This document shows, piece by piece, positions 2,640-23,669 of a stretch of DNA of 32,000 bases. Position numbers and translations under genes: made by a program. The stretch lies in assembly GCA_038889235.1 (NCBI GenBank), contig JAWAHN010000001.1:884499-916498 (forward strand). Reading direction: 5' to 3'. Within the stretch, counting starts at the first letter, position 1. Each line of letters begins with the position of its first letter. A model generated the notes under the pieces. It worked only from the letters and a program-made list of their open reading frames with translations. It made no database searches and was not told where the DNA came from. The DNA comes from Candidatus Jordarchaeales archaeon. GTDB taxonomy: Archaea > Asgardarchaeota > Jordiarchaeia > Jordiarchaeales > Freyrarchaeaceae.

Positions 2640-3048
2640 GGCGGCGTGCCAGGAGTAACCCACCTTCTGTTGGGAGGACCGCCGTCGCCGGCGGCCTCCT
2701 GGCGGCATTCGGCTAAGCGCCCTACCCGCCGCCTCCCGTGGGCATCATCGGCAGCCTATTTGGGCTTTCAACCTCCGAGGCCGGCCGTTTCAACGATCCC
2801 ACTTGCGTCCTCGGCGGGTTAACTCGGCGCTTGTTGCCAAGCGCCTTCTCGGGAGATTTCCCCCCCTCAGCCGCCTCATCGCCATATTGCAAGTGGACGT
2901 GTCGTTTGCAGCCTTACCAATGGTTTCTGCTCCGGAGCCGGGCCTCTCGGCCCGCGCCTCGCGGCGCTCGGATCCCACGGTGGTTGGGTGGAGTTTCCTC
3001 AGCGCCCTTTTCAGGCGCCGTGGGCCGCCCTCTGGCTCGCCGCCTCAT
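2636..3048 (-). ncRNA. rnpB: RNase P RNA (archaeal type A-like)
   Basis: The minus strand carries the CR-I motif GAGGAAACUCCAC and CR-V AACAGAAGGUGGGUUACU, plus GCAGAAAC and UGAAACGGC. The P1 terminal stem is AUGAGGCGGCG...CGCCGCCUCAU. GC-rich island of ~413 nt. Confidence 0.93.
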
Positions 3049-4745: not shown

Positions 4746-5462
4746 TCAGATGGATTTTATTTTTCCTTTGTATGCCAATATGCTTTGGATCAACATTGAG
4801 GCGCCTAGTATAGCTGTCGTGCTTGGAAGCACATTGAAAAAGCTCAAGGAGAGTAACGTTCCTCCCAAAGTTAGAGACAAATTAGATCCCTTGCTTCCTT
4901 TTCTGTGGAAAGAAGGCTTCTTAGAGCGCAGCAGATACATTTCTATTTCTTTTGCATTAAGACGATGTGAGAGTAATTTGACAAGTTTGTTTTTCTTCCA
5001 CTTTATCGATGCAATCTCCATGTGGCGTTTCGCTAAGTTATATAGCTGAACACGTGTAAGCTGGTATAACATTTGCTCTTTTACGCTGAAAGTTTTTGTT
5101 GCAGGCTTACCTTCAATAAGTGCAGAACACGAGAGGTAGAGAGTTAAGAACGCTATCACAAGGCTTGGGGTTGCAGCCACGAAGCTTGGGAAAGAGATGA
5201 GCGCATTGCTCCAGACAAACAGTGTTCCAGCCGCGATGGCTAGTATCACAATGCCGTAAAATAGTAGGTCTATAAAGGCGAAGGAGCACGCTTTTCTGAG
5301 GACATAGCTTAGACCTGTAAGCGAAATCGTTGCACCTATTGTGGTCGTCAACAAGGATTCATAAGAAACCATGAAGCCAGTAGTCTGCAAAAGTAATCCC
5401 GTTAATAGGAGCGCCCACATCTGTTTTAACGGCGTAAAATCACCGATAAGCTTCTCCCACAT
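4746..5462 (-). CDS. Hypothetical multi-pass membrane protein with a Rho_N/HeH-like helical motif
   Basis: About four N-terminal TM segments, then LTRVQLYNLAKRHMEIASIKWKKNKLVKLL, then a C-terminal hydrophobic hairpin. Start set at ATG 5462 (GAGGTG SD). Confidence 0.65.
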   Translation of the reverse strand: MWEKLIGDFTPLKQMWALLLTGLLLQTTGFMVSYESLLTTTIGATISLTGLSYVLRKACSFAFIDLLFYGIVILAIAAGTLFVWSNALISFPSFVAATPSLVIAFLTLYLSCSALIEGKPATKTFSVKEQMLYQLTRVQLYNLAKRHMEIASIKWKKNKLVKLLSHRLNAKEIEMYLLRSKKPSFHRKGSKGSNLSLTLGGTLLSLSFFNVLPSTTAILGASMLIQSILAYKGKIKSI

Positions 5463-5718
5463 ACCTCCCCACCTCAGAAAGGAATACACTAACAGTGAAT
5501 ATGAGTTTAGTTTTCGGGAAAGAGGTAATGAAGACTAAGGAACAAAGGGACGCTATTTTTTGGAGCGATTTAACCTCTCGAATTTCCACGTTTCAGTTTA
5601 GGTAATCATTAGTTCAGTGATGAGTGGAGAAGGTACCTTATAAAAGTTTTCTGTTCTAATTTTTAGGGAACGCTCTACGTAAGGTGTGTTGAGTACAAGT
5701 TGAGCACTCAATGGAGAT

Positions 5719-5734
5719 ACGCAAAGTTCAAATA
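5719..5734 (+). promoter_or_regulatory. Putative BRE/TATA promoter of the H/ACA RNA
   Basis: ACGCAAAG-TTCAAATA lies ~30 nt upstream of G5758, where the GC-rich structure begins. Confidence 0.5.
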
Positions 5735-5757
5735 AATAGGATTCGTTAAGAGTAACT

Positions 5758-6064
5758 GGGCTCCCCGTCGAGGGCTAGCTGACTGCCCATAGACGGGTGT
5801 GAATGAAGCTTAGAGCAAGAGGGGAGCTACACATTACGAAGGGGAAGGGCGCCGCGTAAAAACCCACTTGAACGGGCCCTCATCGAAAAAAGGGCGTTAA
5901 GCCCTAAAGATGAGGTGGGGCTTACCCAGGTGGGGGACAGCGGCCTGGAACGCCGGGTAGGTGGCTCCCAGGTCTGAGAGCACGGTTGAGAGGGGCGTAT
6001 GCTCCGCTGTGAAACCGTGTGTTAGTTACCTAGGGAACACCGGCGTTCCCCTTCCCCTTCAACA
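5758..6064 (+). ncRNA. Multi-hairpin box H/ACA pseudouridylation guide RNA (3 hairpins plus clamp helix)
   Basis: Hairpin 1 (5759-5831) and hairpin 3 (5966-6039) each have a P1 stem followed by ACA, an internal pocket and a K-turn. Their pockets pair with the 23S at 12304-12317 and 11730-11741. Hairpin 2 (5863-5939) is similar but has no assigned target. Confidence 0.85.
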
Positions 6065-6082
6065 AATAACACCTCTAACATG

Positions 6083-6098
6083 ATAGAAACCTTAAAAA
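6083..6098 (+). promoter_or_regulatory. BRE/TATA promoter of the aIF-1A gene
   Basis: ATAGAAAC-CTTAAAAA lies upstream of the SD GGGGTGAGG and TTG start at 6142. Confidence 0.5.
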
Positions 6099-6141
6099 TC
6101 TGATGCGAGTCAGTTTAAAGGTGTCGGGGTGAGGGACAAGA

Positions 6142-6456
6142 TTGCCTAAAAGAAAAGAGAAGGAAGAGATGCTTGAGGTAAAGGATGTAAGAATACCCAT
6201 GGAAGGGGAAGTTTTAGGCGTAGTTGAGAGGATGGTTGGCAATGATAGGCTTATTGTTAACTGTGCGGATGGCAAAACCAGGCTTGCAAGGATTAGGGGG
6301 AAATTCAAGAAGAAGGTTTGGATAAAAAATGGGGATGTCGTGCTAGTAGCTCCCTGGGATTTTCAGGACGACCGAGCAGATGTTATATGGAGATACAGTG
6401 AGGGAGAGGTTAAATGGTTGAAAAGTAAAGGATATCTTAATGGTTTAGAAGTTTAA
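6142..6456 (+). CDS. eif1a: Translation initiation factor aIF-1A
   Basis: EGEVLGVVERMVG..RLIVNCADGKTRLARIRGKFKKKVWIKNGDVVLVAPWDFQDDRADVIWRY. Confidence 0.96.
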   Translation: MPKRKEKEEMLEVKDVRIPMEGEVLGVVERMVGNDRLIVNCADGKTRLARIRGKFKKKVWIKNGDVVLVAPWDFQDDRADVIWRYSEGEVKWLKSKGYLNGLEV

Positions 6457-9341
6457 CTTTTGCCGGCGTGACGAATATACTTTAAGTATTTTTCAACGAA
6501 TTCTGGTTTTAAGTAAAAGAGTATTGTTAGAATTATTGTGGTCAGTAGCAGCATAGTGGATAATTGAGTGCATGATTGGTTAAGCTCGTAATGTCTTAGT
6601 ATGGCTTGCAAGATAGGAGGCGATAAAGCATAAATGTTCACTCCTTCGGGGGGAACAACTTCTAGGAGTAGTGAAAAGGTTACGTTTTCTCCATAATCAT
6701 CTGTGGCTTTTATCGTTATGTTTAGTACACCGGTGTAAGTAGGTGTGATGTAAGCCACGTAAACGTTCTCTTCTTCACTTTTTTGCGGCTCAAGAAGCGT
6801 TGTCCCATTTACTATAATACTGATGTCACCAGAGAAGTTTTTCGGGCTTGAAGGTGGGGAATATCCAACCCACACTTTTATGGTATGTGTTTTTCCTAGG
6901 GTCAGTTTTTCATTCGGTTGAATAATGGCTGCAGTTAGCTTATAAACGCGGAAAATGTAAGTAGTCTCGCCGGTGGGACTGAAACGTCTCTCATGGTGAA
7001 TTGTACCATCATAACTAACTATTCTCAAAATGTATTTTCCAGCATCGGTGGGCGTGAAGTTAAAAGTGAAAGTAAAGTTACCTGAGGGAGCCGCTTGAAA
7101 GTCTCTCTTTGAGCCGTTAGGCAACACTATTGTAGCGATAACTGTTTCAGGGTTATCTAAGAAGTTTCCTACTACTATAGCTAGTTCCCTTCCAACGTGA
7201 CTGAAGTCGTGCGTTACACTTAGCTCGGGAAGAAGCGATATTTCTAGATCAAGTTTGCTTCCGTCTGCAAGCAATGGAATGTTTTCGCCTTTTAGTACGA
7301 GTAGGCTGCGAGTTGTTTCGTTTAATGAGAAGTCAAGCCAATCTTCACTTGGAGAAGAATTCAAGACTACATTCTTGACGGCGTATTTTGCAGGGTAGTC
7401 GAGCTTTATGAAGCTTTGTTCAGGAAATATGGTGCTTCCATTGTGAGTGTAGTTATACAAAATTTTTGATGTATCAAACAAAGCGACGTCCTTTAGGGAT
7501 AACTTTGCAAAAGCAAATACGATGAGGCTTTTTTCAACCCAGCCCGATGTATCTTTGAGTTCAACCAGGAATGATACCTCCCCTTCAGACTTATCGTAAC
7601 TTATCTCGTCAGTAGTGAAAGATTTCGTGTAGCCGTTTCCAATCATTGAAGTTAGCTTTGTACCGTTCAAATAAAGCGTGTAACCGCTGAGATTTCCAGT
7701 GTAGTTCACGTAATGAACAATGTATGACACACTGTAGTTTAGCTGTGTGATGGCAGTTACAGAGATAGTTACACTACCATTCACTGGAGCTAACCACAAG
7801 CTGCTGTTCCAGGATAGGTCGTTGCGGACTGGTGTGCCATTAACGAGAAGGAGGAGGTCGTTGAGAGCACGCCAGCTTGTGTAGTCTGGGGCAATTTTCA
7901 TGCAATGCCAGTACCGGTTTCCATATGGGTCTCTTGCATCTAATACCCAACTAGCCCCTCCATCGGTAGTCCAAATCTCGTACCCAAATTCGGGAACTCC
8001 CTCATTAGTTCCCTCCATGTGGCTTCCCCAATCATAGTAGCCGCCGTTAGTTGAGGGAAGCCAGTCTTTCACGTGGAGCACGAGGAAGTATGCACCAGCG
8101 GATAAACTTGAGGTGAAGTTTAACGTCACCCAGGAATAGTTGGAAGATATGAGTGACGGAGGAACATCTATGCTTTCTATGATGGTGCCGGGAACCCAGC
8201 GGTTACCGTCGAGAGTAGCATTACGTAGCTCCGCGGTTAAGTTAACGTTCATTCCAAAGTTAGCTAACGGAACGGAAATGCTAATCCGGTTTACGGCTTT
8301 TCGGAGCAGGAACATTTGCGCCTCTCCCATACTCCCATTTATGCGAGCATAACCTCCGCTATTCATGCGATCTTCTAGAGTAGTCCACACTAACCCCGGT
8401 TTTATGTTTGAGAGGGAAAAAGATGCAGAGTAAACTCTATTACCGGGAACATCGACGGAAAAACTTCCGTTCAGCATGTCAAGTATTCCGCTAGCGCTTC
8501 CCAGGGTGACGCCTTCACATATATCCAAGCATAGATAGTCTAAATCCCAGCCGGGAGGCAAGTTAAACTTGAATCCATCGTAGACCATTAGACTGATATT
8601 CATCCAGCAATCATAATTAACAAGCTCCCATTTGGAAACATCGTTAAGATCGTCAAAGGACATAAAGTTATTCACGAACGCAAACCCTGCGTCGCCATAG
8701 CTGTCTGCCGTAACATTCCAGCCGAAGTGCGTTTCACTAGTTGTGTTTGCATAAACGACAATGAAGAAGATGCCGTCGCATGTATCGGAAACATTTAAAG
8801 TAACAGGAGACTCGTTCAGGAAGGTTACCCATCCAGGCGAGGATGGAACCATAGTGCTCGAGTAAGACTTCTCAATCAAAGTTACGTTCGGCACAGGTAA
8901 GCCGTCTCTGAGCGTAGCATTCCTTAATTGAACGACAAGGCCAACGGCTTCGCCTTCTCCATCTCTCCACAAATAAAGAGAGACTCCAGTAAAGTTTACT
9001 TTTAAACCACCCACACTTGATATGTTAAAGGACATGGCTACAGATTGGTTTGACGATGCAGAACAATTCACCGACAAATATTCGTTTCCATAAAGATTTT
9101 CTTCAAGCATCAATGTTACTGGCTTGCTCGTGCTAAACGACGAAAAGTTTATCCAATAAGCGGAAAGCGTTACCTCAGCACTAACAGGAGATTTTCCTAT
9201 CAATGTGGGAGCCACTAGGCGAGTATTATCGCTCTGTAAATTAGGGAACAAAGGAAACACCGAAACGGATAACAGAACTTGAATCATGAAAAGTGAAACA
9301 AGTAAGGTCAACGTTGCAGCAACAACCTTCTTGGCCTTCAA
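6453..9341 (-). CDS. Large secreted/surface glycoprotein with duplicated beta-sandwich modules and a C-terminal TM anchor
   Basis: N-terminal signal/TM (KKVVAATLTLLVSLF), many N-x-S/T sequons, two LRNATL...VP...WVT..F modules, C-terminal TM followed by a basic tail. Confidence 0.8.
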   Translation of the reverse strand: MKAKKVVAATLTLLVSLFMIQVLLSVSVFPLFPNLQSDNTRLVAPTLIGKSPVSAEVTLSAYWINFSSFSTSKPVTLMLEENLYGNEYLSVNCSASSNQSVAMSFNISSVGGLKVNFTGVSLYLWRDGEGEAVGLVVQLRNATLRDGLPVPNVTLIEKSYSSTMVPSSPGWVTFLNESPVTLNVSDTCDGIFFIVVYANTTSETHFGWNVTADSYGDAGFAFVNNFMSFDDLNDVSKWELVNYDCWMNISLMVYDGFKFNLPPGWDLDYLCLDICEGVTLGSASGILDMLNGSFSVDVPGNRVYSASFSLSNIKPGLVWTTLEDRMNSGGYARINGSMGEAQMFLLRKAVNRISISVPLANFGMNVNLTAELRNATLDGNRWVPGTIIESIDVPPSLISSNYSWVTLNFTSSLSAGAYFLVLHVKDWLPSTNGGYYDWGSHMEGTNEGVPEFGYEIWTTDGGASWVLDARDPYGNRYWHCMKIAPDYTSWRALNDLLLLVNGTPVRNDLSWNSSLWLAPVNGSVTISVTAITQLNYSVSYIVHYVNYTGNLSGYTLYLNGTKLTSMIGNGYTKSFTTDEISYDKSEGEVSFLVELKDTSGWVEKSLIVFAFAKLSLKDVALFDTSKILYNYTHNGSTIFPEQSFIKLDYPAKYAVKNVVLNSSPSEDWLDFSLNETTRSLLVLKGENIPLLADGSKLDLEISLLPELSVTHDFSHVGRELAIVVGNFLDNPETVIATIVLPNGSKRDFQAAPSGNFTFTFNFTPTDAGKYILRIVSYDGTIHHERRFSPTGETTYIFRVYKLTAAIIQPNEKLTLGKTHTIKVWVGYSPPSSPKNFSGDISIIVNGTTLLEPQKSEEENVYVAYITPTYTGVLNITIKATDDYGENVTFSLLLEVVPPEGVNIYALSPPILQAILRHYELNQSCTQLSTMLLLTTIILTILFYLKPEFVEKYLKYIRHAGKS

Positions 9342-9688: not shown

Positions 9689-9699
<11 letters not shown>
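9648..9699 (+). other. 5' strand of the 23S pre-rRNA processing stem with BHB
   Basis: Pairs with 12763-12814. Central helix CGCC(9667-70)/GGCG(12788-91), with 3-nt bulges AAC (9671-73) and AAU (12792-94). Confidence 0.88.
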
Positions 9700-12762
<3,063 letters not shown>

Positions 12763-12773
<11 letters not shown>

Positions 12774-23579: not shown

Positions 23580-23669
23580 TGGAGCCGCCGGGGGGATTTG
23601 AACCCCCGACCCGCGGATTACAATTGCGGTCTTTGATGTCCGCCGCTCTGCCTGCTGAGCTACGGCGGC
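23580..23669 (-). tRNA. tRNA-Thr(UGU) with a 14-nt intron at 32/33 and encoded CCA
   Basis: GCCGCCG/CGGCGGC acceptor stem, U73, GCUC/GAGC D stem, GCGGA/UCCGC anticodon stem. Removing 23624-23637 gives loop CU-UGU-AA. BHB helix GCGG/CCGC. Confidence 0.93.

Follow-up and report, generated by a model that had tools for sequence, protein, structure and literature searches.

Introduction

Eukaryotic H/ACA small nucleolar RNAs (snoRNAs) of the hairpin-hinge-hairpin-tail type, such as yeast snR46 and snR3, are among the multi-hairpin guides. They are not known to have a kink-turn (K-turn), their H box lies in a single-stranded hinge, their ACA stands 3 nucleotides (nt) from a free 3' end, and no helices are known to enclose them. 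Here, we analyzed a 32,000-nt stretch of DNA (hereafter, the window; positions 884,499 to 916,498 of contig JAWAHN010000001.1) from a thermophilic hot-spring Asgard archaeon (Jordarchaeia). Positions 5759–6060 on its plus strand very probably encode a single box H/ACA guide RNA of ~300 nt, the counterpart of the three-motif RNA HgcG/Pab40. Helices close two of its three hairpins immediately behind their ACA trinucleotides.

The closest known RNA is the three-motif HgcG/Pab40/Pf7/Pho40/Afu-4 small RNA (sRNA) (Rfam RF00064; PMC2377435). Both RNAs combine three H/ACA hairpins within ~300 nt, each with a K-turn or kink-loop (K-loop) and an ANA box, and Rfam aligns hairpins 1 and 3 of the Jordarchaeial RNA to motifs 1 and 3. 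Hairpin 1 shares the pocket core CGAGG with motif 1 and is predicted to act on the same uridine of the peptidyl-transferase region, the equivalence of the two numberings being inferred. Hairpin 3 shares GUGUUA with motif 3 and, like it, is predicted to aim at helix 69. The ~300-nt guide RNA is real and most likely directs pseudouridine formation in the large ribosomal RNA (rRNA).

Results

Fold of the region around hairpins 2 and 3

Hairpins 2 and 3 fold as a three-way junction composed of an outer helix, a helix A and a helix B. Its elements are as follows (P1, lower stem; P2, upper stem).

5838–5848, plus strand: outer helix, 5' purine strand GAAGGGGAAGG; perfect inverted repeat, pair probabilities 0.99–1.00, with a purine/pyrimidine helix in the same place in all five species compared
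5851–5855, plus strand: helix A, 5' strand GCCGC; closes hairpin 2 by pairing with 5940–44, with a compensatory GC-to-AU change in one relative (G001)
5863–5939, plus strand: H/ACA hairpin 2, found by a genome descriptor scan, its P1 and P2 covarying in five species (by eye); P1 5863–70/5927–34, P2 5878–84/5914–20, K-turn G.A pairs 5885–86/5912–13 within GAUGA, ACA 5937–39
5940–5944, plus strand: helix A, 3' strand GCGGC; begins right after the ACA of hairpin 2
5947–5956, plus strand: helix B, 5' strand GGAACGCCGG; closes hairpin 3 as a 10-nt perfect inverted repeat with 6040–49
5966–6039, plus strand: H/ACA hairpin 3, found by the descriptor scan and by sub-threshold Rfam matches, and the source of covariance model R1 (see below); P1 5966–73/6028–36 with A6032 bulged, P2 5980–87/6013–20, K-turn G.A pairs 5988–89/6011–12, bulge 6008–10, ACA 6037–39
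6040–6049, plus strand: helix B, 3' strand CCGGCGUUCC; begins right after the ACA of hairpin 3
6050–6060, plus strand: outer helix, 3' pyrimidine strand CCUUCCCCUUC; runs on from helix B without a linker

The segment GAAGGGGAAGGG (5838–5849) is 100% complementary to CCCTTCCCCTTC (6049–6060), and a perfect inverted repeat of 12 nt was reached by only 1 of 300 dinucleotide shuffles of 5740–6080. The 227 nt between 5838 and 6064 gave a folding z-score of −6.3 against shuffled sequences. A perfect 10-nt repeat joins GGAACGCCGG (5947–56) to CCGGCGTTCC (6040–49), the same 3' strand that a preliminary description of this locus had paired with 5850–54. The three-way junction was the minimum-energy fold of the RNA from the genome under study (G000) at 37, 60, 75 and 85 °C, and of its four homologues at 37 °C. 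As the junction linkers measure 2, 2 and 0 nt, helix B probably stacks coaxially on the outer helix. The bases directly 3' of each ACA pair with a segment that lies 7–10 nt before P1, which places each ACA in an internal loop instead of on a free tail; the loop has 5–10 nt on its 5' side and 3–5 nt on its 3' side. The purine tract is itself an internal repeat (GAAGGG GAAGGG; window 5838–5851/6041–6054), which makes a slipped alternative register possible, with 86% complementarity.

The preliminary description had drawn this region as a single 17-bp purine/pyrimidine clamp (5838–54/6041–60, with UUC bulged) around hairpin 2, a CGGC/GCCG mini-hairpin at 5941–55 and hairpin 3, ending in a further ACA at 6062–64. 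Its core was correct: a purine/pyrimidine helix does enclose two H/ACA hairpins, each with a tandem G.A K-turn motif, a pocket and an ACA (5937–39 and 6037–39), and 5838–49 and 6049–60 are perfectly complementary. However, the helix spans 11–12 bp, and the inner five pairs with the UUC bulge were not supported. The strands of the longer clamp are able to pair in G000, the inner five pairs contributing −7.7 kcal/mol, and the corresponding alignment columns (15–19/215–219) were 96% paired across the five species; these columns stay paired because the segments GCCGC, GCGGC, CGCCGG and CCGGCG resemble one another. On the other hand, the inner pairing showed no compensatory change and a covariation score under the shuffle mean, and only three of its five pairs form in G001. 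When the hairpins were fixed in their open-pocket form, the clamp was 11 kcal/mol worse than the three-way junction at 37 °C. The mini-hairpin was 75% paired in the five-species alignment, its strands going into helices A and B instead. Helix B, which uses the same 3' strand as the clamp, covaries within the family and across eight families. We consider the single 17-bp clamp extremely improbable. The ACA at 6062–64 was absent from all four relatives and is thus attributable to chance.

Comparison within the Jordarchaeial family

BLAST searches of related genomes detected the RNA in four further species of the same family (two genera), at 76–80% identity. In all five species, it lies just upstream of the aIF-1A gene. 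A 27-base gapped pattern run over metagenome contigs returned known species only, and a 15-nt guide pattern run over genome contigs gave mostly chance bacterial matches, re-finding only G001 and G004.

In an alignment of the five species (A2), 98.6% of the cells of helices A and B were paired, against 35–49% in slid controls; four pairs (six cells) were changed on both sides, and none of 500 shuffles reached the covariation score. The earlier inner pairing together with the mini-hairpin was 86.7% paired (slid controls, 23–55%) with no both-side changes, and its covariation score, below the shuffle mean, was reached by all 500 shuffles. Three of the pairs changed on both sides within the family belong to helix B. 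When helix B strands were swapped between species, cognate duplexes averaged −20.0 kcal/mol and non-cognate ones −12.6 kcal/mol, the cognate being best in 5/5 rows and columns. In each of the five species, folding gave the outer helix, its pair probabilities lying mostly between 0.6 and 1.0, with lower values at two terminal pairs. Its A-U pair shifts in register from species to species (GAAGGGGAAGG, GGGGAGGG, GGAGGG, GGGAG and GGGGG(AGA)), with matching pyrimidine strands. The covariance check that had been proposed for the clamp, using homologues 5' of aIF-1A, had a divided outcome: compensatory changes in helices A and B, none in the earlier inner pairing, and weak covariation in the outer helix.

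We also considered whether the purine and pyrimidine tracts are a DNA-level or termination feature, such as a pyrimidine-rich terminator or a part of the aIF-1A promoter, rather than an RNA helix. No oligo-T terminator follows the RNA in the Jordarchaeial family, unlike families that have one directly after helix B, which would suit a terminator function. However, the A and U positions shift jointly in register in all five species (GGGGAGGG/CCCUCCCU, GGAGGG/CCCUCC and GGGAG/CUCCC, for example), and the purine tract falls within the transcript, 200 nt further upstream. This explanation is thus given very little weight.

The RNA appears to form one transcription unit, with a promoter-like element upstream of hairpin 1.

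5723–5734, plus strand: transcription factor B recognition element (BRE)/TATA-like promoter block AAAGTTCAAATA, ~25 nt 5' of hairpin 1; its function is inferred from position

The block GTAAAGTTCAAATA is kept in the four relatives, and a BRE/TATA-like block precedes hairpin 1 in all five species. The gap between hairpin 1 and the outer helix is only 6–9 nt. With this one conserved promoter-like block, the narrow gap and a unit that is syntenic 5' of aIF-1A across the family, the earlier proposal of a nested, multi-domain guide RNA of ~300 nt from a single promoter gained support.

Closing helices across Asgard genomes

We built a covariance model from hairpin 3 alone, without flanks (R1), and searched 151 Asgard genomes. 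R1 matched 25 of them, in nine families. In eight of the nine, a helix of 6–13 bp starts 0–2 nt after the ACA, with unrelated sequences in different families (helix B strands GGGGUGGGUGCA/UGCACCCACCCC, GUUGAAGCGC/GCGCUUCAAC, UUGGGAGACGCCG/CGGUGUCUCCCAA and CGCGUCA/UGACGCG, for example). The closing duplexes averaged −17.2 kcal/mol with the cognate strand and −9.6 kcal/mol with strands from other families, and in 15 of 24 genomes no cross-family partner equaled the cognate. A second model, R2, consisting of R1 plus helix B, gained 4–13 bits over R1 in 8 of the 10 out-of-family loci compared, while L153 and L158 lost 0.5–0.7 bits; in family f19, which is without the helix, R2 lost 10–13 bits. 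In A5, the alignment fitted to the model, each of the 11 helix B pairs has both-side changes, and 95% of cells were paired, against ~44% in slid controls. Hairpin 2 likewise has a closing helix of differing sequence in six further families (f2, f3, f7, f8, f15 and f20). As covarying helices of unrelated sequence occupy the same place in eight families, closing helices are Asgard-wide. In the phylum to which a Methanoregula metagenome-assembled genome (MAG) belongs, R1 had no match at E ≤ 0.1 among 151 genomes, a result that says nothing about clamps outside Asgard.

The arrangement around the closed hairpins varies. Tandem pairs of closed hairpins occur in families f8 and f15, and in other families hairpin 1 stays with hairpins 2 and 3 and the outer helix is missing. 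At locus L160 (family f26), only hairpins 1 and 3 are present; hairpin 3 sits inside one interrupted clamp of 6+5+8 bp (AGCGCCGG..UACAG..AACACC with its complement), followed by UUUU. In family f19 (L151, L154 and L156), the hairpin 3 homologue has no closing helix, and a long near-perfect hairpin (e.g. GCCAAUACGGCC...GGCCGUAUUGGC) stands directly 5' of it. In the sister family f2, the RNA is located elsewhere than upstream of aIF-1A; there, nhmmer detected no homologue, and no clear GC-rich RNA island was seen (one short peak of 53–63% GC, at L136). In several families, an oligo-U run comes directly after helix B, indicating that helix B holds the 3' end. No clear outer helix was seen among the R1-matched loci outside the Jordarchaeial family, to which this helix looks specific.

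These data also bear on whether the outer helix serves in processing or ligation, as a platform at which basal cleavage would free a two-hairpin RNA of ~225 nt, possibly circular and separate from hairpin 1. The terminal helix does bring 5838 and 6060 together, and circular small RNAs occur in other archaea. However, by eye, with no dedicated motif scan, we found neither a bulge-helix-bulge (3-nt bulge, 4 bp, 3-nt bulge) within or beside the helix, which runs uninterrupted for 11–12 bp between flanks that form at most three A-U pairs, nor any other sign of processing. Hairpin 1 lies only 6–9 nt away and has no second promoter behind it, and the families just mentioned hold hairpin 1 with hairpins 2 and 3 despite having no outer helix. 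A processing platform is accordingly judged unlikely, although less so than a DNA-level role of the tracts.

Anatomy of the three hairpins

The single ~300-nt RNA begins with hairpin 1.

5759–5831, plus strand: H/ACA hairpin 1, recognized from sequence and folds, from Rfam, which aligns it weakly to HgcG motif 1, and from a pocket complementary to the large-subunit (LSU) rRNA around U2621; P1 5759–66/5821–28, pocket 5767–74 and 5814–20, P2 5775–80/5807–13 with U5811 bulged, K-turn G.A pairs 5781–82/5805–06, ACA 5829–31

All three hairpins have a lower stem P1 (8–9 bp), an open pocket and an upper stem capped by a K-turn with tandem sheared G.A pairs. Counted from the sequence, the G.A pairs stand 9–10 layers above the pocket in each. 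The distance from pocket to ACA is 14 nt in hairpin 1, 15 nt in hairpin 2 and 16 nt in hairpin 3 (15 nt without the bulged A6032). The three hairpins match the geometry rules derived from productive Pyrococcus guides (PMC4652768). Across 23 sequences of hairpin 3, both-side changes were found in 8/8 pairs of P1, 6/8 of P2 and 5/5 of the apical stem. For hairpin 1, a closing helix (GUAA.UG 5752–58/CAUUAC 5832–37) was predicted in G000; it was rejected, being not conserved in the genus and probably 5' of the transcription start.

An H/ACA descriptor run over the whole 2.1-Mb genome gave seven matches, hairpins 2 and 3 among them. Strict and relaxed descriptors, a GC-island filter and model R1 at E ≤ 10 revealed no H/ACA RNA hairpins in this genome beyond hairpins 2 and 3; the other descriptor and R1 matches (C1:164605 and C1:370069-370322) were discarded as false positives, apparently in coding sequence. 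Neither box C (RUGAUGA) nor box D (CUGA) occurs next to 5838–48 or 6050–60. An Rfam search for C/D RNAs in 5500–6300 gave no credible match; the sole one, snoU6-47 at 5523–5639, lies outside the RNA and scored 21.6 bits against a gathering score of 54.

Predicted rRNA targets

Candidate target uridines were found for hairpins 1 and 3.

12309, plus strand: predicted target U of hairpin 1, LSU U2621 (equivalent of Escherichia coli 2496, peptidyl-transferase region), with 5 + 7 bp flanking U-N
11735, plus strand: best-fitting target U of hairpin 3, LSU U2047 (equivalent of E. coli 1921, 3' strand of helix 69), with 5 + 5 bp in the canonical register

Hairpin 1 is predicted to select U2621. Its pocket pairs with CUUGC and CCUCGAU on either side of U2621–U2622, at the 14-nt pocket-to-ACA distance given above. 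The equivalence of U2621 to E. coli 2496 comes from our own alignment. We take the predicted sites to correspond to the yeast 25S pseudouridines 2865 and 2264. Motif 1 of Pab40 acts at position 2588 of Pyrococcus abyssi 23S rRNA (PMC2377435). If the numbering is shifted by 92 there, as it is at other sites in domain V, this position would be E. coli 2496.

Hairpin 3 probably selects U2047; most Asgard families conserve GUUA and GAGA(G/A), the cores of its guide. Two neighboring sites were tried and rejected: at E. coli U1915 the 3' arm fails, and at U1917, the site reported for motif 3 of Pab40 (PMC2377435), two P2 pairs must open and three target bases are left unpaired. For hairpin 2, we rejected candidates at positions 1040–48 of the small-subunit rRNA and at LSU 932 and 2740. 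Its segment ACCCAG (window 5924–5929, 3' pocket/P1) is conserved in most Asgard families and complements CUGGGU (LSU 2704–2709, window 12392–12397), which lies in the peptidyl-transferase center (PTC) beside uridines equivalent to E. coli 2584–2586. This pairing was also set aside as a guide duplex, its register being non-canonical.

Genomic setting

The RNA lies in a GC-rich island (window 5700–6100) with up to 58% GC, against 48% for the genome. It is flanked by an unannotated open reading frame (ORF) and by aIF-1A (Pfam eIF-1a, E = 7e-26). The flanking ORFs at 4746–5489 (minus strand, 247 aa) and 6453–9341 (minus strand, 962 aa) matched no Pfam family at E ≤ 0.001.

The window contains other RNA genes. 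A solitary 23S rRNA gene occupies 9689–12773 (plus strand) with the 962-aa ORF upstream, and the sole 16S gene found is at C2:20259-21755 of G000; as the 23S gene stands alone and the only detected 16S gene sits on another contig, the rRNA operon is split. An archaeal RNase P RNA was found at 2644–3040 (minus strand, 149.6 bits). At ~400 nt, it exceeds the 288-position model by ~110 nt and has several large insertions. A transfer RNA at 23583–23669 (minus strand; Rfam, 55.8 bits) carries a 20-nt insertion at the anticodon loop.

Discussion

Stability and possible function of the closing helices

When the pockets were fixed open, the junction contributed ~−49 kcal/mol at 37 °C and ~−22 of −34 kcal/mol at 75 °C, or about half and two thirds of the folding energy, respectively. 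These shares support a thermostabilizing role of the outer helix, and thermal protection in this hot-spring family is plausible on the modeled energies. Temperature does not explain the inner closing helices, as they are also kept in families without GC-rich RNA islands (e.g. f2).

From what is known of this RNA family, the K-turn of each hairpin would be the binding site of L7Ae, P1 and the ACA that of Cbf5-Nop10-Gar1, and each pocket would pick one uridine of 23S rRNA for isomerization. The closing helices might let each guide unit fold independently, insulated from its neighbors, and preserve the shape of the short P1 stems and open pockets. They may also bury the 3' end in a duplex, where it would be shielded from 3' exonucleases. 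The family-specific outer helix of 11 bp, which joins both units, would add thermal stability. On the 5' side, the long A-rich linker, which usually starts with G-U/C-A, could leave the PUA domain enough slack to hold on to the ACA. In the window, the linkers at 5856–5858 and 5957–5959, behind the 5' strands of the closing helices, open with G-U/C-A opposite the ACA.

In the minimum-energy fold at 75–85 °C, G5856 pairs with C5938 and U5857 with A5937, so the naked RNA may partly mask its ACA. The closing helices might thus be inhibitory or regulatory, sequestering the ACA until Cbf5 or a helicase opens them as an assembly checkpoint. Besides these two pairs, the helices flanking each ACA and the linker G-U/C-A opposite it fit such a checkpoint. 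However, a bound ACA would have slack from the linkers of 5–10 nt on its 5' side, and there is no known partner protein. Long, perfect, strongly conserved helices (up to 13 bp) are also easier to reconcile with a lasting structural role than with a transient one. A checkpoint therefore seems improbable to us, if slightly less so than the processing platform.

Several points weigh against our interpretation of the locus as a three-hairpin guide with structural closing helices. The structure under test was used to fit alignment A5 and is thereby favored. The outer helix is carried by only five species, and its low-complexity strands covary weakly; in the strand swap, the cognate partner was best in only 3/5 cases, a test that is weak because both strands are of low complexity. 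A helix-enclosed ACA may have to be pulled out for Cbf5, so that the closing helices could hinder assembly. As for the targets, the arms of hairpin 3 are short (5+5 bp with two G.U pairs), and a slipped register leads to E. coli U1917. The canonical-register search of the rRNA gave no convincing target for hairpin 2. A genome-wide target scan was swamped, as complementarity equal to that of hairpin 1 arises by chance; the assignments therefore rest on conservation and geometry. Expression of the ~300-nt RNA, its binding into a ribonucleoprotein (RNP) and its pseudouridylation activity are predictions from sequence.

Significance of an enclosed ACA

Textbook H/ACA RNAs carry the ACA on a single-stranded tail. 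An ACA locked between two helices, with covariation in eight families, departs clearly and testably from that picture and raises the questions of how the PUA domain gains access to the ACA, how the 3' end is defined, and whether multi-hairpin guides are insulated modules or not. One possibility, which we put forward tentatively and think doubtful, is that closing helices with the ACA in an internal loop are the ancestral, Asgard-wide H/ACA design, implying that ACA recognition by the Cbf5 PUA domain, or assembly, differs from the free-tail mode. If so, the free-tail mode of Euryarchaeota, Crenarchaeota and eukaryotes would not be shared by Asgard archaea, and an extra assembly factor could be involved. 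The Jordarchaeial junction would be a further step, fixing two RNPs in a defined geometry on one scaffold. In practice, the closing helices provide a structural signature for annotating such RNAs, which Rfam misses at present, and the predicted targets would place two pseudouridines at functional centers of the Asgard ribosome.

Comparison with known H/ACA RNAs

In the literature searched, we found no paper linking H/ACA RNAs with Asgard lineages, and no description of closing helices after the ACA together with a purine/pyrimidine tie, as in hairpins 2 and 3. The Rfam scan gave no above-threshold match in the RNA, the sub-threshold ones being HgcG/Pab40 and Pyrobac-1 only.

The hairpins resemble the single-hairpin archaeal H/ACA sRNAs of the Pab91/Pf9 type in having ~10 layers from G.A pairs to pocket, a 3' guide of 5–7 nt, a P1 of 8–9 bp and an ACA 14–16 nt from the pocket (PMC4652768). 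In those sRNAs, however, the ACA is on a free 3' tail, whereas here an internal loop bounded by P1 and a closing helix of 5–11 bp holds it. The K-turn upper hairpin of hairpin 3 resembles the Pyrobaculum H/ACA-like sRNAs (Pyrobac-1, RF01722; PMC4652768), with 34.3 bits against a gathering score of 40. The lower stem is missing in the Pyrobaculum RNAs, whereas the Jordarchaeial hairpin has a full P1 and an additional helix below it.

The three-motif HgcG/Pab40 RNA differs in other respects. Against its gathering score of 77, the Jordarchaeial RNA scored 17.8 bits (5707–5944) and 11.4 bits (5979–6024). Two of the three predicted target regions are common to both; those of motif 2 and hairpin 2 may differ. 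Motif 3 of Pab40 has been assigned to the equivalent of E. coli 1915/1917, whereas the canonical register of hairpin 3 leads to 1921. Finally, in the HgcG consensus P1 starts 0–1 nt after the previous ACA and no pair spans a motif, whereas in the Jordarchaeial RNA helix A, helix B and the outer helix all span motifs.

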